A stretch of 64,000 nt of DNA from a virus. The notes below the pieces were generated by a model. That model did not search any database, was not told where the DNA came from, and was given only the letters and a program-made list of their open reading frames with translations. Of the stretch, positions 48,943-63,469 are shown one piece after another. Location: positions 1-64,000 of the IMG/VR virus record IMGVR_UViG_3300043811_000021; one strand, 5' to 3'. The position numbers were made by a program, and so were the translations under genes. How positions within the stretch are numbered: position 1 is the first letter of the stretch; each line of letters starts with the position of its first letter.

Positions 48943-49584
48943 TCACGGCTTTATCCAGTCTGAAATCCTCTTACGAAGGATTTTCCACACAGTAATGGAC
49001 TTGAACTCTTTCAGTTCCTTTTCCTGATCCTCAACGATCTTTTGGAATAGCGTCACTTCCCCGGCGAGAGATTTTTCCTTCCCTTCAGAAATCTTCAAAT
49101 CTCTCTTAAGTGCTGCTATTTCCTTTAGTGCTTGGTCTCTCTGTTCGCGTAGGACAGTTTCTGCACTCTGCTTCCCTCCAAGAATTGCTCTCTTCTCATC
49201 TCCAGTAAGAGCGATATGCTTACTGCTCACCTTTTGCTTTGGCCTAATGCCAAACTGTCTTTTCTGTCCTGGAGTTAGAGGGTATTTACCGAGCAACGCA
49301 CCGTCCTGTAGACCGCACTGGTCCTCGTAGGCGCGTCTCTGATTGCACATATGACATGCAGAGCACAAGTTCTCAGGATCGTCTGTTCCTCCTTTAACGC
49401 GAGGAATAATATGCTCAATGGTTGCTTGGTCTGCATCGGGTTCATTGCATAGTCTGGTAGAACATCCGCACCAGTGACACACTTTTCCTTCTGCGATCCA
49501 CAGCGCCTCACGTTTTCGAGGTGTAGGCGTATCAGACCATACCTTTGTCGGCATAGGAACTAGATTGTTGGAGTTTGTACTCAT
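48943..49584 (-). CDS. HNH endonuclease with C-terminal coiled coil
   Basis: CHWC, TIEHIIPR.KGG.D...N...AC..CN. Confidence 0.85.
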   Translation of the reverse strand: MSTNSNNLVPMPTKVWSDTPTPRKREALWIAEGKVCHWCGCSTRLCNEPDADQATIEHIIPRVKGGTDDPENLCSACHMCNQRRAYEDQCGLQDGALLGKYPLTPGQKRQFGIRPKQKVSSKHIALTGDEKRAILGGKQSAETVLREQRDQALKEIAALKRDLKISEGKEKSLAGEVTLFQKIVEDQEKELKEFKSITVWKILRKRISDWIKP

Positions 49585-49626
49585 AGGGGAATTATATCAT
49601 GGAAGGCGCAGGATAATAGAAGAATA

Positions 49627-49701
49627 TGGAGCGAATGACCGGGCACGATCCGGTGACTTTTGGGTGGAAGCCAAATATGTTACCAACTACACCACATTCG
49701 C
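49627..49701 (-). tRNA. tRNA-Gly(TCC)
   Basis: Cloverleaf, CT-TCC-AC loop, U73, encoded CCA; atypical T-loop ATCGTGC. Confidence 0.85.
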
Positions 49702-49706
49702 TAAAC

Positions 49707-49781
49707 TGGTCCCGGTGATCCCTTACGAGGGGACGGCCTCCGTCTTATCAGGACGGCGTTCTTCATCTGAACTACACCGGG
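49707..49781 (-). tRNA. tRNA-Ile(GAT)
   Basis: CCGTC-CTGATAA-GACGG, CCA; T-loop CTCGTAA. Confidence 0.85.
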
Positions 49782-49787
49782 TTAAAA

Positions 49788-49861
49788 TGGAGCCTACGCG
49801 GAGAGTTTAACTCCGGTCTCTATCGTACCAGGATAGGGCACTGTCGCTATGCTACGTAGGC
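49788..49861 (-). tRNA. tRNA-Thr(GGT)
   Basis: CTATC-CTGGTAC-GATAG, GCCTACG/CGTAGGC, CCA. Confidence 0.85.
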
Positions 49862-49927
49862 ATTGAACATCCCAGAGTCACAGGTATTTCATCTGTGCGT
49901 TGTAACCTGCTTCCCCTACTTTCAATC

Positions 49928-50362
49928 TCACTCTGAAACAGAGAACGTTTTGTAATTAACCGCCATCCTCGCCTGTGAACGATAGTTCTTATTTTTTCTA
50001 TCCTCAATCCTAAGTGTTATAGCACTTTTCTTGGGCGGCATCTCTTCCCATGGTATGTAATAGCATTCCTTTGTTTCTGGACAATATACCGCTAATATAT
50101 CAAAATCACCATCAACATATTTCATTCTATGACTACCTTTGGAATTTGCCCAAGTTGATTCTATATCTATTTTCAAAGTACCGTCGCGCACCGAGCAATA
50201 TTTCACCTGAACAGTCCATAATTTATTTGAACGATATACTACAAGATCGAATGGAGCGTGTTCCGTTTGAGGTACACAGATTATGAAGCCTTGTTCGCAA
50301 AGATCAGCCTGAACTTTCAACACCGCTAGGTCACCCTTTTCTTTTGTGTGATGACTCTTCAT
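49928..50362 (-). CDS. Group I intron-associated-type PD-(D/E)XK endonuclease (I-Ssp6803I-like), free-standing
   Basis: TK.KGD.A...V...L...G..I..P..EH.PFDLV...VQVKY, D.D..AVYCP.T..CY.IP. Confidence 0.8.
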   Translation of the reverse strand: MKSHHTKEKGDLAVLKVQADLCEQGFIICVPQTEHAPFDLVVYRSNKLWTVQVKYCSVRDGTLKIDIESTWANSKGSHRMKYVDGDFDILAVYCPETKECYYIPWEEMPPKKSAITLRIEDRKNKNYRSQARMAVNYKTFSVSE

Positions 50363-50536
50363 TTATCTATTATAACACTAAAAGAAGCACTCCGAACTTG
50401 GTTGCTCAGGTTAACGCTTTTCCTGGCTGTTAGGCATTACGACCATTTGCAACTGGTAGCCTAAACACTCTCAACTCGCCTACCTGTATTTTCCTGTGGC
50501 CTACAGGTGTTTCGGTAGGTCTGTATCGAGCTAACT

Positions 50537-50614
50537 TGGTGCGCCGTGAGAGGCTCGAACTCCCGACCTAGTGCTTGTAAGGCACCCGCTCTGAACCAAC
50601 TGAGCTAACAGCGC
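50537..50614 (-). tRNA. tRNA-Val(TAC)
   Basis: Canonical cloverleaf, CCA. Confidence 0.92.
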
Positions 50615-50619
50615 AAAAA

Positions 50620-50695
50620 TGGACGGTCTATCGGAAGTTGAATCCGAATTTCTACCTTCGGAGGGTAGCGCCCTTATCCGTTGGACCATAGACCG
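50620..50695 (-). tRNA. tRNA-Arg(CCG)
   Basis: CTACC-CTCCGAA-GGTAG, CCA. Confidence 0.88.
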
Positions 50696-50701
50696 AAAAT
50701 A

Positions 50702-50780
50702 TGGTGCCGCTGGCCAGAATCGAACTGGCGTCAATCCGTCTACTCGAAGCCCGCTTAGGAGGCGGGTGAGGTACAGCGGC
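50702..50780 (-). tRNA. Non-canonical D-armless tRNA-like gene, anticodon CCT (Arg)
   Basis: Perfect acceptor, anticodon and T arms plus CCA; only 7 nt between acceptor and anticodon stems; 20 nt variable region. Confidence 0.7.
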
Positions 50781-50784
50781 AAGA

Positions 50785-50861
50785 TGGTGCTGACGGCTGG
50801 GATCGAACCAGCGGCATCTTGCTTAGAAGGCAAGCACTCTATCCGTCTGAGTTACGTCAGC
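50785..50861 (-). tRNA. tRNA-Arg(TCT)
   Basis: Canonical cloverleaf, CCA. Confidence 0.92.
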
Positions 50862-50865
50862 AATC

Positions 50866-50951
50866 TGGTGGAGCCGGTGGGACTTGAACCCACATTGGGT
50901 TTCCCCGCTCATTAAAAGTGAGGTCTCTGCATCCAATTCGAGTACGACTCC
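50866..50951 (-). tRNA. tRNA-Lys(TTT) with long variable arm
   Basis: CT-TTT-AA loop; variable hairpin GGG-GAAA-CCC; CCA. Confidence 0.8.
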
Positions 50952-50959
50952 ATTAAACT

Positions 50960-51036
50960 TGGTGAGCGCGGCTGGATTTGAACCAGCGTCAGCCTGCTTA
51001 AGAGGCAGGTATAATCAGCCGCTATACGACGCGCTC
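50960..51036 (-). tRNA. tRNA-Lys(CTT)
   Basis: CCTGC-CTCTTAA-GCAGG, CCA. Confidence 0.9.
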
Positions 51037-51037
51037 A

Positions 51038-51117
51038 TGGTAGACGTGACGGGTGTCGAACCCGCGTACTCCCGCTTATAAGGCAGGTGCTAAAACCAAT
51101 CCATCAGCTACACGTCT
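51038..51117 (-). tRNA. tRNA-Ile(TAT)
   Basis: CCTGC-CTTATAA-GCGGG, enlarged D-loop, CCA. Confidence 0.85.
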
Positions 51118-51126
51118 GTAAAACTA

Positions 51127-51202
51127 TGGTGCCAGTGGCTCAACTCGAATGAGCTACCTCCGACTTATGAGATCGGCGCATATCCACTTCTGCTTCACTG
51201 GC
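51127..51202 (-). tRNA. tRNA with CAT anticodon (elongator Met or Ile2)
   Basis: CCGAT-CTCATAA-GTCGG, G1:C72, CCA. Confidence 0.85.
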
Positions 51203-51207
51203 GAAAC

Positions 51208-51278
51208 TGGCAGGGGATAGGAGAATCGAACTCCTCACGGCGAGTTTTGGAGACTCGCCTAATCCCAGATCATCCCCT
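51208..51278 (-). tRNA. tRNA-Trp(CCA) with reduced D-arm
   Basis: CT-CCA-AA loop, G73, CCA; 71 nt. Confidence 0.82.
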
Positions 51279-51304
51279 GTATATCCTGCGAATTTTCAAT
51301 GATC

Positions 51305-51333
51305 AAAAAGAAGCCCTTCCACTGAGGAAGGGC
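51305..51333 (-). terminator. Attenuator terminator of tRNA block A
   Basis: GCCCTTCC-TCAGT-GGAAGGGC-TTCTTTTT. Confidence 0.85.
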
Positions 51334-51359
51334 CGGTGCTACAACACTTGCACAGACCC

Positions 51360-51431
51360 CTAAGACACGATCCCCCATCCCATCCGCTTGATGGTTATGG
51401 TTCTGACGTGTTTGCTAGTGGTCTGCATCAT
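51360..51431 (-). CDS. Leader peptide A (MMQTTSKHVRTITIKRMGWGIVS)
   Basis: AAAGGA RBS; codons match anticodons of the 12 downstream tRNAs; stop codon overlaps the antiterminator arm. Confidence 0.85.
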   Translation of the reverse strand: MMQTTSKHVRTITIKRMGWGIVS

Positions 51432-51526
51432 TTTTCCTTTGTCGAGGGGTTTCCCGCTCTAGCCCTATTATATCCCAGGCTGGGGTTTAGCTCTGCATAA
51501 TCCATCTACAGAGTACCGCAAGTCGA

Positions 51527-51856
51527 TTAGGAATGCAAGCCCAAAAATCGATAAGTCAACAATAAAGTTGTCAGATGGATCGCCTGATCGAACCCAATCA
51601 GCACAAAGAACCAGTGACGCTTCTCTTTCTTCCACAAATACGAAGTCCCCCTAGAGGTAATGTAATCGGTCGCGAAATGGAAGACAAACGTAATTATAGC
51701 GAACTTCCAGCCGAAAGCCAAGAATGGAAGAGAGTAAACAGAGACGTGAATTCCAAGCCATGTGTTTCTCGTTGACTTATTGAGAGCCATATTATCAGTT
51801 TGCAGAACAAAATCTGAGATGAAGTGAATCCAGATCAACGCTAAGATGTAGAGCAT
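51527..51856 (-). CDS. DUF3307 family membrane protein
   Basis: HF..DF.LQ...MA..K, H...Y, HF.TD, DQ..H. Confidence 0.85.
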
Positions 51857-52603: not shown

Positions 52604-52906
52604 TTAAACCGCCAGTGCTTCCAAAGCAGCCAGTTCCTTTTCCAGTTCGCTCTTCTTCTGGGCAGGAGTCTTGAGAGAGTCAATCCGTGCTGTCAGTTCA
52701 CGCTTACGTGCAGCGATCTTGTCAGAGTTACGAGATGTGATCTCCCGGCGAATTGCTTTCAGTTGCGAATCAATGAACTCAGGCTCTTCGATCTGTAATG
52801 CCTCGTATTCGGCACGGAGAGACTTTCCGAAGGCCAGTCCAGCAACCAACTCGTCAATGTCAGTTACGCGGTCAGTGTTGAATGTCTTGAATGTTTGAAG
52901 ATTCAT
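52604..52906 (-). CDS. Small coiled-coil protein coupled to the TROVE/VWA gene
   Basis: ATGA overlap with upstream stop; helical heptad pattern. Confidence 0.75.
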   Translation of the reverse strand: MNLQTFKTFNTDRVTDIDELVAGLAFGKSLRAEYEALQIEEPEFIDSQLKAIRREITSRNSDKIAARKRELTARIDSLKTPAQKKSELEKELAALEALAV

Positions 52907-54411
52907 GCTGTTACCAGTTTACCTTTCTGTGCCCCCTTGAGCACTGAGTTGAGAGTTAAAAGCGGAGTGGCCAGGATTTCATCCACAAGTCCGTAGGTTT
53001 TCGTTCTCATAGTCTGCGCCAAATTTGGGATTGAGTAGTAATCCGTTCCGCCCCTTATGTCAAATGTCTGCATTTCCAGTCCAGCACTCTGCATCTTCGT
53101 TGTGAGGCTGTTAGGCTCACCTTCAACGTGGTACAGATATACTGGAACGTCACGGTCAGCGAACGCCACATATTTCTTGTAAACGTCCGTAAAGTACGGT
53201 GCGCTATGTTCCGCGCCGTCAGAAACAATTGCAATTCCATCAACCGAAATCTTCTCCTGAAGCATCCTGTTCAAACCGCAGCCGATGGATGTTCCACCGT
53301 TGGCTGTGATGTGCCTTGTTGCCTTTTGGATTGAGTCCAGAGGCAATCCTGTTACATCAATAGTCATCGGGTTAGTGTCAAAGAATACAAGGTAGACCTT
53401 TCCTCTGCAAATCTTAGCCAACGTAGCAGCAACGTGACGGGATGCCTCAATGGAACGAGACATACTACCCGACTTGTCTGCCAAAACGAGCCAATCGCCT
53501 TCTGGTCCTCCCATTGCCGCAATCTGCTTATCTTGTAGTCCCTGCAACTTCTCTTTCAGAACAGAGTCAGTCACAGACTCAGCAGCTTTGGTCGTCTTCA
53601 GCGTATTCTTCTTAGACGTTGCAGCCTTTGCTAATGCCTGATCAAATGCCCCGCGAAGTGCAGGATTCGTCTTCAGTCCCAACTTCTCCAACATCTTCAC
53701 GTTGGTAGTCAACTCAGTCGCAGACATTGCTCCAATCAACGCCAGAACCAAATCAGGTTCCTTCGCCTTTGCTCCCAATGCTCCCATCGCGATAAGGAAA
53801 GGAATCCGGTAACGCATGATCGATCCTGCCGCTTCCGTAGGAGTCATGTTCTTGAGGTTTGCTACTACCTCAAATACCGATCCCTTGGGAAGTGGTAATT
53901 TATTACCCTTTTCATCCTTACCGAAAAGAACCGCACGAACACGGTCTGCCTTTGTCTCAGGGCGAACATGGCCAAGAGCATACAACTCCCTCAGCGTCTT
54001 CCTATGCTGAATTGCCAGATGATCCCAGCCCTTATCCTGCTCCTTCTCATGCAGGTAATCGCCAATCAACCGGCGCAAAGGAAGCATCTTACCTGCTGGA
54101 CGAATCTCACGCGCAAAATGGAAAGCGCGAAGCAACTCACGCGGTCCAAGCAATGCTAAATGAGCATACGCATTATCCAATAACTCCGAGTCATTCTCAT
54201 ATGCCAAGCCGATAACTGGAAGAGCAACCTTGCTGTCCCTTATCTGCCCATGAGTTCTATCCCAGGAAATCAAATGCGCAAAGAATTCGCCTTCCTGTTT
54301 TACTGCCTGTTGTCCGATAGGAACGTATTCCTTCAGCGCACCGTGAGGACTTTTTGAAAGTTCACTCACAATTCTTTGTTTTGTCAATCCCTGTTCTGCC
54401 ATAGTATTCAT
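52903..54411 (-). CDS. Ro60/TROVE-like protein with C-terminal VWA (MIDAS) domain
   Basis: DKSGSMS (DxSxS), GGTSIG, IVSDG; basic helical N-terminal ~300 aa. VWA is certain; Ro60/TROVE is inferred from size, architecture and adjacent RNAs. Confidence 0.7.
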   Translation of the reverse strand: MNTMAEQGLTKQRIVSELSKSPHGALKEYVPIGQQAVKQEGEFFAHLISWDRTHGQIRDSKVALPVIGLAYENDSELLDNAYAHLALLGPRELLRAFHFAREIRPAGKMLPLRRLIGDYLHEKEQDKGWDHLAIQHRKTLRELYALGHVRPETKADRVRAVLFGKDEKGNKLPLPKGSVFEVVANLKNMTPTEAAGSIMRYRIPFLIAMGALGAKAKEPDLVLALIGAMSATELTTNVKMLEKLGLKTNPALRGAFDQALAKAATSKKNTLKTTKAAESVTDSVLKEKLQGLQDKQIAAMGGPEGDWLVLADKSGSMSRSIEASRHVAATLAKICRGKVYLVFFDTNPMTIDVTGLPLDSIQKATRHITANGGTSIGCGLNRMLQEKISVDGIAIVSDGAEHSAPYFTDVYKKYVAFADRDVPVYLYHVEGEPNSLTTKMQSAGLEMQTFDIRGGTDYYSIPNLAQTMRTKTYGLVDEILATPLLTLNSVLKGAQKGKLVTA

Positions 54412-55887: not shown

Positions 55888-56017
55888 ATTTGGTTAGTGT
55901 CTGTCAGCGAGTGTTGCTGGTTGAAAAAGTAGGGATCGAACCTACGACCTATTCATTTGAAGTGAATTGCTCTACCAGTGAGCTATTTTTCCGTGTACGC
56001 TGCCATGTTAACCAAAT
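55888..56017 (-). ncRNA. Array RNA 4: motif stem enclosing a complete tRNA(TCA)
   Basis: ATTTGGTTA-ACA-TGGCAGCG-TACAC-[tRNA]-...CGCTGACA-GACAC-TAACCAAAT. Confidence 0.75.
55918..55992 (-). tRNA. tRNA with TCA anticodon (would read UGA), nested in array RNA 4
   Basis: GCTC/GAGC D-arm, ATTCA-CTTCAAA-TGAAT, GTAGG-TTCGATC-CCTAC, A-U-rich acceptor with G1-A72 mismatch, ACCA. Confidence 0.75.
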
Positions 56018-56022
56018 CTTAA

Positions 56023-56084
56023 AGGGTTGGTATCGGACTGCGCTGTTCATGTTTACAAAGCATGTAAGCAGTCCCGTCAACCCT
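56023..56084 (-). ncRNA. Array RNA 5 (minimal unit)
   Basis: AGGGTTG-ACG-GGACTGC-TTACAT ... GCAGTCC-GATAC-CAACCCT. Confidence 0.75.
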
Positions 56085-56091
56085 ATCTTAA

Positions 56092-56207
56092 TCCGCTTGT
56101 GTCTTTTGGCTAACCCTTGCGGGCACAAGGCCGTTTTCGAGGCGGCTTCTTTTTCTCCAAATGAAAATGCTGGACTACCAGCACATGTACGCCAAAACGT
56201 AAGCGGA
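56092..56207 (-). ncRNA. Array RNA 6
   Basis: TCCGCTT-ACG-TTTTGGC-GTACAT ... GCCAAAA-GACAC-AAGCGGA. Confidence 0.75.
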
Positions 56208-56380
56208 ATCTTTCATCCCTAACATCAGGAAAACTCAAACTCAGTGATTAGGTAGCCTCACATCAGGTCGCTCACTTCCAGAATCCGGCACAGTTACAAA
56301 CGGGACGACACCCTCACCTAGCTACCATCTTTCCATGCCCTCATTGGTAAAGCTACCTAATCTCTGCATCAACAAAACCA

Positions 56381-56409
56381 ACTCTACTACAATGTCCTGC
56401 GCATTGCAA
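56381..56409 (-). promoter_or_regulatory. Putative promoter of the RNA array / TROVE operon
   Basis: TTGCAA-17 bp-TAGAGT with GCGCAGGACAT box in the spacer, same geometry as 34197-34225. Confidence 0.55.
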
Positions 56410-56455
56410 GCACTTTCTAAAACTATTTTCTACTATTTTTATGCTTGCTAAATTA

Positions 56456-58005: not shown

Positions 58006-58093
58006 TGGGGAGATCGGCGGAACTCGAATCCGCGTTGAGGAATTACCCTCCCGGAGCCACAATCCGGTGCCTATCCATCTCGGCCACGACCTC
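58006..58093 (-). tRNA. tRNA-His(GTG) with long variable arm
   Basis: TT-GTG-GC loop, C73, variable hairpin GAGG-GTAATT-CCTC; no encoded G-1. Confidence 0.82.
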
Positions 58094-59177: not shown

Positions 59178-59293
59178 ACAACTAAACAGTGAGGGCGCGA
59201 CTCTTTCGCTCCGAACGTCTTACTCAAACCCCAAAGGGGTCACTGCGTTACTCGACAGGACTTACTAGACGGCCTGTGTCCCTCTCCAAACTT

Positions 59294-59384
59294 TGGCTCA
59301 CGGAGCAGGACTCGAACCTGCGATGGGAGATGAACTCCTCTGTATTAACAGTACAGCGCCTGCTACCAACTCGGCTATCCGTGA
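59294..59384 (-). tRNA. tRNA-Asn(GTT) with long variable arm
   Basis: U1:A72, G73, CT-GTT-AA loop, variable hairpin GGAG-TTCAT-CTCC. Confidence 0.85.
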
Positions 59385-59401: not shown

Positions 59402-59429
59402 GAGACCCAAACCTTTCGATCTGGGCCTC
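59402..59429 (-). terminator. Attenuator hairpin of tRNA block B (weak U-tract)
   Basis: GAGGCCCAGATC-GAAA-GGTTTGGGTCTC then GAACTGTTT. Confidence 0.6.
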
Positions 59430-59476
59430 TGCGTTTTACCATTTTTAGTTAGGTAAAAATCTCTCTGAGACCCCGA

Positions 59477-59542
59477 TTATGACCCCCCACCCTGCGGCGT
59501 TTGTGTCGCGGTTGGATTGGCGTTATGGAATCGTGTCTGCAT
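59477..59542 (-). CDS. Leader peptide B (MQTRFHNANPTATQTPQGGGS), probably leaderless
   Basis: ATG 6 nt after the -10 box; codons match the 11 downstream tRNAs. Confidence 0.85.
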   Translation of the reverse strand: MQTRFHNANPTATQTPQGGGS

Positions 59543-59548
59543 GAATTC

Positions 59549-59577
59549 AATGTACCTCAGTCCTAAAAACTTGTCAA
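59549..59577 (-). promoter_or_regulatory. Promoter of tRNA block B
   Basis: TTGACA-17 bp-TACATT. Confidence 0.8.
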
Positions 59578-62145: not shown

Positions 62146-62490
62146 CTACGGAAACCGAGCAATACCAGGAACTTGATCGAATCCAGTCACTCCTTCTCGC
62201 TTCAAAAGCCTCCAACCTCCATCACCTATCCGCATCACTTCTCCACTGTCTATTTCCTCAATCGGATTCGTAACCTTTCTCCAATTCTCGCAAGTGCATT
62301 TGAATTGCATTGAAACAGGAAGAGGACATGGCTCTCCTAGATGCGATTCTTCATTATCACCACAACATCTACGCATATTACATGGAGGGATACATCCACC
62401 AACTAAAACAGCGCCCTGTTTGACAAGACGCTGCGCTTCGGCTCCAGAACGGGCCATTCCAGTTTCCGTTAGTGCCTTAGATAATTTCAT
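62146..62490 (-). CDS. Stand-alone S4 RNA-binding domain protein with Cys-rich insert
   Basis: L.ETG.A.S..EA.RLV.QGAV.V.G motif resembling the TyrRS C-terminal S4 domain; later RKV...E.......RIG. Confidence 0.7.
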   Translation of the reverse strand: MKLSKALTETGMARSGAEAQRLVKQGAVLVGGCIPPCNMRRCCGDNEESHLGEPCPLPVSMQFKCTCENWRKVTNPIEEIDSGEVMRIGDGGWRLLKREGVTGFDQVPGIARFP

Positions 62491-63306: not shown

Positions 63307-63337
63307 AAAACTAAAAAGCCCCCATTTCTGGAGGCTT
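63307..63337 (-). terminator. Attenuator terminator of tRNA block C
   Basis: AAGCCTCCA-GAAA-TGGGGGCTT-TTTAGTTTT. Confidence 0.85.
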
Positions 63338-63362
63338 CTGGTAAAAATCCTGAACTTGGACT

Positions 63363-63434
63363 CTATCCCATAGCCTCTCTCGCACTCAGACTGAGTGAAT
63401 ACGATGATAAAGATAGGGAGCACAAGTTGTTCAT
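63363..63434 (-). CDS. Leader peptide C (MNNLCSLSLSSYSLSLSAREAMG)
   Basis: 14 consecutive Leu/Cys/Ser/Tyr codons matching the 9 downstream tRNAs. Confidence 0.88.
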   Translation of the reverse strand: MNNLCSLSLSSYSLSLSAREAMG

Positions 63435-63440
63435 GTATTG

Positions 63441-63469
63441 ATCCTCTCATAGATTCAGGATGTTGTCAA
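63441..63469 (-). promoter_or_regulatory. Promoter of tRNA block C
   Basis: TTGACA-17 bp-(TGn)GAGGAT, ATG 6 nt downstream as in block B; GAGG could instead act as an RBS. Confidence 0.6.

Follow-up and report, generated by a model that had tools for sequence, protein, structure and literature searches.

Leader-peptide attenuators are found at amino-acid operons, among them trpL, hisL, leuL and pheL and the multivalent thrL and ilvL, and the attenuator of E. coli pheST (Phe-tRNA synthetase) has a Phe-rich leader. T-box riboswitches, by comparison, bind uncharged tRNA directly, without an open reading frame (ORF) or a ribosome. How phages control the expression of the tRNA genes that they carry is little understood. 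Here, we describe leader A, an element that lies directly before a block of tRNA genes (block A) in the virus record IMGVR_UViG_3300043811_000021 (134,145 bp, 46% GC, rated complete by CheckV). The first 64 kb of this record (positions 1 to 64,000) form the stretch that was analysed, hereafter the window. We consider it likely that leader A is a trp-type ribosome-mediated attenuator and one of three such units in the genome. The general principle, leader-peptide transcription attenuation, is outlined in PMC1183508.

Like the attenuators of the amino-acid operons, leader A combines a short ORF containing the presumed regulatory codons with an intrinsic terminator and an antiterminator that have one strand in common, and its stop codon is placed so that a terminating ribosome would mask the antiterminator. 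It differs from them in that the regulated genes would be tRNAs and not enzymes, in that the codon list mixes 8-10 amino acids, with 1-3 codons each, that match the downstream tRNAs, in that the protector helix is not conserved and in that two of the three leaders in the genome appear to be leaderless. With pheST it shares leader-peptide attenuation of a translation gene whose product is needed for the sensed codons; pheST senses one amino acid and regulates a protein, whereas here many would be sensed and the product is a decoding RNA. With T-box riboswitches it shares a terminator/antiterminator switch that would report tRNA status through a codon-anticodon match. New here are the tRNA genes as target, the mixed codon list mirroring the encoded tRNAs and the presence of one unit per block.

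Papers of the 1980s on phage T5 are said to describe units of 'promoter, short ORF, tRNA genes, terminator'. The T5 tRNA region (AY543070) resembles the present locus in that small ORFs lie between its annotated promoters and the tRNA genes. It was rejected as a precedent because the 12 small T5 ORFs that were translated do not mirror their downstream tRNAs; T5.070, which precedes tRNA-Cys, is Cys-rich and looks like a zinc ribbon. The nearest printed case is the trn tRNA array of Anabaena, which is induced under translational stress and is adjoined by rtcB (PMC8421152; PMC10272220). This array differs in being controlled by a repressor, TrcR, that acts on direct repeats in the promoter (PMC8421152), and the strings 'leader peptide', 'attenuat' and 'terminator' do not occur in that article. 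No published description of leader-peptide control of tRNA genes was found in the literature outside subscription journals, supplements and about 1.7 million PMC articles including old scans.

Leader ORF A and its match to the tRNA block

The features of unit A and its tRNA block are as follows.

51468-51473, minus strand: TATAAT, possible -10 element of the leader A transcript (weak, with no good -35 element and absent from the promoter-scan list)
51435-51439, minus strand: Shine-Dalgarno-like AAGGA, 3-4 nt before the ATG, read from the sequence
51360-51431, minus strand: leader ORF A, 23 codons and TAG, MMQTTSKHVRTITIKRMGWGIVS; homologues in relatives
51420-51426, minus strand: segment 1, GCAGACC, candidate protector, predicted to pair with segment 2 (duplex -12.9 kcal/mol)
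51375-51404, minus strand: ten-codon run AGA ACC ATA ACC ATC AAG CGG ATG GGA TGG, candidate regulatory codons
51350-51361, minus strand: segment 2, antiterminator 5' strand, overlapping the last two bases of the stop codon and containing the conserved GGGTCTG
51328-51339, minus strand: segment 3, antiterminator 3' strand, of which 51334-51328 is common to the terminator 5' arm
51312-51334, minus strand: intrinsic terminator hairpin, GC-rich 9 bp stem with a 5-nt loop (-16.7 kcal/mol)
51302-51311, minus strand: U-rich tail (TCTTTTTGAT) 3' of terminator A
within 49627-51280, minus strand: block A, 5' part, with Trp-CCA, Met-CAT, Ile-TAT, Lys-CTT, Lys-TTT (type-II-like), Arg-TCT, a D-armless CCT candidate, Arg-CCG and Val-TAC
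within 49627-51280, minus strand: block A, 3' part, with a PD-(D/E)XK ORF (50362-49928) followed by Thr-GGT, Ile-GAT and Gly-TCC

Leader A is a complete start-to-stop ORF with AAGGA upstream, 25 nt before the terminator and ~80 nt before the first tRNA of block A. An earlier note, made from the sequence alone, had proposed that its codons mirror the anticodons of the downstream tRNAs, and this was borne out. The ten codons at 51404-51375 are Watson-Crick complements of the block-A anticodons TCT, GGT, TAT, GAT, CTT, CCG, CAT, TCC and CCA, and 19 of the 23 leader residues are block-A amino acids. An exact codon is present for ten of the 12 block-A tRNAs, the exceptions being the D-armless CCT candidate and Val-TAC, which is matched by GTG through wobble alone. 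The run is the longest of its kind in all six frames of the 134-kb genome, in which block-A exact-codon runs of length 5, 6, 7, 8 and 10 occur 106, 30, 12, four and one times, respectively. With standard wobble, block A decodes 17 of the 22 leader codons after the start, against a background of 0.288 (from 27,907 codons in 93 long ORFs; binomial P = 3.4e-6), and leader A ranks first among 1826 small ORFs for codon set A. Chance cannot explain the position of the codon run, which coincides with an ORF, an AAGGA, a terminator and the matching tRNA block.

The stress that the earlier note laid on exact Watson-Crick codons holds for leader A and does not extend further. Given its amino acids, leader A has 14 exact codons of 18, with 9.6 expected (P = 0.009, a generous value since leader A was picked for exactly this property). 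No such excess is seen in leader B (9/17, 8.1 expected) or leader C (8/14, 7.5 expected), the two further leaders described below, and leaders of relatives use GTC, ATT and GGG. The match between leaders and tRNAs is therefore mainly at the level of the amino acid or codon family.

Terminator and alternative pairing

The pairing scheme put forward in the earlier note (1-2, 2-3 and 3-4) could be reproduced in the window. Segment 2 (51361-51350) pairs with 51339-51328 at 11 of 12 positions, including two G-U pairs, and this partner overlaps the terminator 5' arm (51334-51326). The 2:3 helix, on whose competitiveness with the terminator the note had made its reading depend, is competitive (-15.1 versus -16.7 kcal/mol). 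Folding under ribosome-footprint constraints gave the expected order on a transcript cut before segment 4. In this truncated transcript, sequestration of the terminator 5' arm is 0.25 without a ribosome, 0.39 when one occupies the stop codon and 0.73-0.96 when it has stalled 4-14 codons before it; in these models, this is the order that the trp model requires. An Rfam scan of 49400-51700 gave only tRNA-like and chance matches, with none in 51281-51470 and no leader, riboswitch or T-box family.

As judged from its sequence, the locus appears to possess all the parts of an attenuator: a short ORF, cognate codons, a terminator, a mutually exclusive antiterminator of comparable stability and a stop codon whose ribosome would mask the antiterminator 5' strand. 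The proposed trp-type logic, in which a ribosome at the stop codon gives termination and a stalled one readthrough, is supported by two more matched leaders, by conservation, by the footprint-constrained folding and by the competitiveness of the 2:3 helix.

In the mechanism that we propose, RNA polymerase would start upstream of the 23-codon ORF and a ribosome would translate the ORF behind the moving polymerase. If the codons of the block (Thr, Ile, Lys, Arg, Met, Gly, Trp and Val) are decoded fast, the ribosome would reach the stop and cover GGGTCTG, leaving the terminator 5' arm free; the hairpin would then form and transcription would end 31 nt before the first tRNA. Slow decoding of any block codon would stall the ribosome upstream, so that GGGTCTG could pair with the terminator 5' arm and polymerase would read through into the tRNA genes. 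Such a leader would act as an OR gate, one scarce tRNA species sufficing to open it, and would provide negative feedback in which transcription of the block follows how well the cell currently decodes the codons of the block. Translation of the ORF, termination at the hairpin and the direction of the switch are what we infer from the computed features.

A TTTGA(A/C)A motif is conserved between the A-family terminator and tRNA-Trp (51285-51302 in the window, minus strand). Its spacing does not suit a sigma-70 promoter.

Units B and C

Two further units of the same design are present in the window.

59549-59577, minus strand: unit B promoter, TTGACA-17-TACATT, with the ATG six bases later
59477-59542, minus strand: leader ORF B, 21 codons, MQTRFHNANPTATQTPQGGGS, probably leaderless
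59402-59474, minus strand: unit B switch, with GGGGTCTC directly after the stop, a nested hairpin and a 12-bp hairpin at 59429-59402 (-18.7 kcal/mol)
63363-63469, minus strand: unit C, with TTGACA (63469-63464) and leader ORF C (63434-63363), 23 codons, MNNLCSLSLSSYSLSLSAREAMG
63314-63339, minus strand: unit C intrinsic terminator, canonical, followed by block C at 63306-62508

Each of the three leaders lies directly upstream of its own tRNA block. Leader B is rich in Gln, Thr, Arg, Phe, His, Asn, Ala and Pro, and block B consists of tRNAs for Asn, Gln, Gln, Gly, Thr, Thr, His, Phe, Pro and Arg. In leader C, the ATG of which follows the presumed -10 element by six bases, codons 4-17 specify only Leu, Cys, Ser and Tyr, and the tRNAs of block C are those for Leu, Cys, Leu, Leu, Ser (four) and Tyr. 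The numbers of codons decodable by blocks A, B and C are 17, 2 and 2 of 22 for leader A, 3, 14 and 1 of 20 for leader B and 3, 2 and 13 of 22 for leader C, with own-block binomial P values of 4.2e-5 for leader B and 1.5e-5 for leader C. Among the 1826 small ORFs, leader B ranks first for set B and leader C fourth for set C, the ORFs ahead of it being out-of-frame and rich in Leu and Ser. Thus, each leader lists the amino acids of its own block and not those of the other blocks. The antiterminator and terminator are of similar stability in unit B (-18.4 versus -18.7 kcal/mol), and the antiterminator is the more stable in unit C (-20.4 versus -15.8 kcal/mol). The U-tract of the unit B hairpin at 59429-59402 is displaced and weak.

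Conservation of the leaders

No close relative was found among isolated phages, a blastn search of INPHARED giving only tRNA-level matches. A 502-aa protein encoded at 52903-54411 (minus strand), which has a weak VWA match (Pfam E = 3.5e-5) and is conserved beside the tRNA region in this phage group, retrieved one uncultured 595-kb phage by tblastn (30% identity). When used as a query on IMG/VR, it retrieved nine loci with 64-79% identity and syntenic tRNA blocks. Leaders A, B and C all have homologues at these loci, and leader A ORFs are present in six IMG/VR lineages.

A 19-base pattern derived from the conserved core of leader A matched 16 stretches in IMG/VR (nine true leaders and seven chance matches in coding DNA) and at least 120 in metagenomes, where ~41 of the 80 examined were leaders with the core TKRVIWG; these 80 loci reduced to 74 with enough flanking sequence, 58 with an ORF and 46 that were distinct. 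In genome contigs it matched 41 stretches, of which 16 were true leaders before an array by reading and 12 by a stricter script flag; all 16 are in metagenome-assembled genomes (MAGs) labelled Terracidiphilus, Acidobacteriaceae or Acidiferrales. Each of the three leader families is found again in related IMG/VR phages, dozens of metagenome contigs and the 16 Acidobacteriota MAG contigs.

All 17 leaders examined (seven A, five B and five C) show the diagonal pattern in which a leader holds the amino acids of its own block. Sixteen metagenome relatives have 2.5 kb or more of downstream sequence; in these, leader A is followed by the tRNA set W-M-I-K-K-R-R-R-V-T-I-G, and the leader residues without a tRNA are Q, F and H in the N-terminal part and S or C at the end, within the last one or two positions. 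The leader A frame is open in every homologue, and TTGCAA-N17-TAnnnT lies 7-11 nt before the start codon in its relatives. In all 43 short-type leader A sequences (including a few duplicates between collections) GGGTCTG is immediately preceded by a stop codon, which varies in identity (TGA in 31, TAG in nine and TAA in three), and the stop overlaps GGGTCTG or is 0-4 nt before it. In four long-type lineages the triplet at this place is GAG; the ORF extends six or seven codons to TAA and GGGT lies inside its last codons. A stop of varying identity at a fixed position is what a real ORF would leave, and we take it as evidence for one.

A canonical hairpin with a U-tract follows all seven A leaders and all five C leaders, at a distance of 20-32 nt from stop to stem. 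The distal half of the terminator stem varies with compensation (ten distinct stems, all perfectly paired) and the proximal GACC(C) is conserved, as expected if the proximal half has to pair with two partners. When the transcripts of 16 relatives, picked for diversity from ~49, were cut at the end of the terminator 5' arm, all 16 formed a hairpin starting 0-4 nt past the stop in which GGGTCTG pairs with the terminator 5' arm and sequesters it. The antiterminators of these relatives range from -13.3 to -22.1 kcal/mol and their terminators from -13.1 to -18.3 kcal/mol, the antiterminator being the more stable in 15 of 16. RNAalifold recovered a 7-bp antiterminator helix from 17 sequences, with a compensatory change in L033 and many U-G to U-A switches. 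The terminator 5' arm was more sequestered with a ribosome ten codons before the stop than on it in 14 of 17 leaders.

Relatives have a fourth block, Met-Asp-Glu-Glu, between blocks C and B.

L007 1190-1231, L003 2650-2699 and L194 (57177 region): promoter abutting the first tRNA of the Met-Asp-Glu-Glu block

This block has no leader, ORF or terminator and is a natural negative control for the leader design. In the matching part of the window there are no tRNA gene calls, and the genome seems to be without this block.

Assessment of the attenuator model and alternative explanations

The ORFs, their own-block codon match, the terminators, the alternative pairing and the conservation of all of these were obtained by computation, and several of the computed results weigh against the model or narrow it. 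Pairing of segment 1 (51426-51420) with segment 2, proposed to protect the untranslated leader, is present in the minimum free energy fold of the free RNA of the window; it is not conserved, with 51% of positions paired in seven relatives and no covariation. In the full transcript at equilibrium the terminator won whatever the footprint (P at least 0.86 in 70 of 71 ribosome states), which makes this kind of folding uninformative. Since the terminator wins wherever the ribosome is, antitermination must be kinetic, as in trp. Shuffle controls are no more than moderately favourable overall and not significant for the window copy: sequestration of its 5' arm (0.74) cannot be told apart from that in dinucleotide shuffles of the G-rich upstream part (mean 0.66), 31% of which reached as high a value, and the z-score of the window duplex is +0.84. 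Complementarity between the region under a ribosome at the stop and the 5' arm is weak when compared with dinucleotide shuffles (mean z of -1.29 for A, -1.72 for B and -0.47 for C). Two C-family leaders (L003 and L027) and the A leader of L003 lack the expected footprint effect, and four of five B-family hairpins lack a proximal U-tract. Covariation in the antiterminator is thin, with a double change at one of seven pairs, because the helix is conserved. A pair count for it based on a MAFFT alignment was no better than shuffles; in this alignment the terminator register is one column out, with 63.5% pairing that rises to 92.1% after a shift of +1, and in a second alignment (A3) 4-nt and 5-nt loops put the terminator pairs in two registers. 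With only 1-3 leader codons per tRNA species, sensitivity to a mild tRNA shortage may be low. The last three block-A tRNAs may also escape the gate and be transcribed independently, because a terminator-like hairpin (50409-50392) and an extended -10 element (TGTTATAAT, 50377-50369, identified by eye) precede the PD-(D/E)XK ORF within block A on the minus strand; relatives lack this insertion. Finally, none of the public runs holding this DNA is RNA, the sole holder being a soil-metagenome DNA run.

The direction of control could be the reverse. In a pyrBI-like coupling a ribosome on the stop would sterically hinder the terminator, so that fast decoding would give readthrough and slow decoding termination (feed-forward). 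With 20-32 nt between stop and stem, the leaders are within the range of partial ribosome repression: Li and co-workers report that a ribosome represses the tR2 terminator up to a distance of about 27-30 nt, past which the effect fades, and that termination efficiency at 17-18 nt ranged from about 0.12 to about 0.8 (PMC4824070). At this spacing, however, the leader ORF never enters the terminator, unlike in pyrBI, and the resulting positive feedback on tRNA supply would have no evident use. The conserved element that begins at the stop complements the terminator 5' arm, and a ribosome on the stop would remove the antiterminator and not the terminator. We rate this coupling as unlikely because it is an antiterminator strand that is conserved beneath the terminating ribosome. 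It is quite improbable that control is post-transcriptional, with leader translation or stalling governing pre-tRNA processing, 5' protection or decay and the hairpin serving as a stability or processing element. The mostly U-tract-less hairpins of the B family would suit such a role, as would the conserved TTTGA(A/C)A, which attenuation leaves unexplained, but the A and C hairpins are textbook intrinsic terminators in 12 of 12 cases and the mutually exclusive pairing is a prediction of termination control.

The remaining alternatives dispense with any regulatory link between ORF and tRNA genes. That the small ORFs encode trans-acting micropeptides with a composition unrelated to the tRNAs would agree with the core TKRVIWG, which is conserved in both peptide and nucleotides. 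We regard it as very improbable, as each of three unrelated peptide families matches the tRNA set that follows it and the C-family peptides are freely varying low-complexity strings of Leu and Ser. A spurious ORF that happens to lie beside the terminator of an upstream gene is scarcely credible: by extrapolation from run lengths, a ten-codon run somewhere in the 134-kb genome is not very unlikely, but the position of this one, the two further matched leaders and the conservation in dozens of relatives contradict a chance origin. Attenuation of the trp type thus continues to be the reading that we favor.

The tRNA region

The tRNA genes of the window are all on the minus strand and span 49.6-63.3 kb. 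ARAGORN called 26; Rfam added Met-CAT (51202-51130), Ile-GAT (49781-49710), Pro-TGG (56621-56550) and a weak Trp-CCA (51279-51211), and relaxed ARAGORN settings added Gly-GCC. ORFs resembling homing endonucleases (HNH and PD-(D/E)XK) are dispersed among them. ARAGORN reads the anticodon of the 86-nt Lys tRNA (50951-50866) as TTA; a canonical 7-nt loop reads TTT, which is also the anticodon called by ARAGORN for its equivalent in relatives. Long extra arms are present on this tRNA and on those for His (88 nt, 58006-58093) and Asn (91 nt, 59294-59384), all on the minus strand, and are unusual for tRNAs other than Leu, Ser and Tyr. The CCT candidate (50700-50785, minus strand), identified by reading of the sequence, has acceptor, anticodon and T arms and no D-arm, and was called by neither ARAGORN nor Rfam. 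Relatives have an ordinary Arg-CCT at this position, and AGG does not occur in leader A of the window.

A tRNA with the anticodon TCA, which would read TGA, is located at 55922-55992 (minus strand; Rfam, 65 bits), and the relative L003 has one (8714). ARAGORN labels it SeC, yet its variable arm is short. Directly after tRNA-Tyr, at the end of block C, lies a gene (62146-62490, minus strand) for a 114-aa protein whose N-terminal part is an S4 RNA-binding domain with weak similarity to the TyrRS C-terminus. Structured non-tRNA RNAs are present near the VWA gene (about 56000-56450 and 59180-59290), such that a pairing resembling Ro60 and Y RNA is conceivable; a PDB sequence search with the 502-aa VWA protein gave no matches and the Ro60-like idea was dropped.

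A bacterial island with the same leaders

The same A, B and C leaders occur with a compact array of 35 tRNAs on a 1.147 Mb Acidobacteriaceae MAG contig (G006:C1:32679-61417; L193-L195). In this one MAG the array is at 52.7-58.2 kb of the contig, in an island of lower GC content that carries a TrwC relaxase, a DDE transposase and an integrase. Because the leaders and array are found in this island, Acidobacteriota is the likely host phylum of the phage. RtcB is located between blocks B and A of the island, and Hen1 and Pnkp directly after block A, so that the island, like the Anabaena array, combines spare tRNAs with rtcB. By analogy with that array, the island would tie a leader-gated tRNA array to RNA repair. 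The link to RNA-repair genes is limited to the bacterial island: the RtcB family was found in 0 of 5 records examined (the window genome, three related phage records and one MAG).

Biological implications

A wider role is possible, and we advance it tentatively. Codon-matched leader attenuators might serve generally to sense the tRNA pool and might move, together with arrays of spare tRNAs, between phages and bacterial integrative elements. Each block would open when any of its own tRNAs becomes limiting, including host tRNAs cut by anticodon nucleases or ribotoxins, and the array would be the inducible repair-by-replacement arm of a tRNA-damage response, standing beside RtcB and Pnkp-Hen1 in the island. 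With RtcB absent from the phage records, this tRNA-damage response is offered as a hypothesis.

For the soil phage itself, the predicted switch, self-contained within ~130 nt, probably allows its tRNA set to be made only when ribosomes are short of it. If so, the decision would be taken by the ribosome, which tests the very codons that the tRNAs read, and the attenuator of amino-acid operons would have been reused as a gauge of decoding capacity. This would explain the grouping of the tRNA genes into blocks by amino acid, how a phage could adapt its tRNA production to different hosts or to defences that cleave tRNAs, and why the same arrays lie beside RNA-repair genes on a bacterial mobile element.

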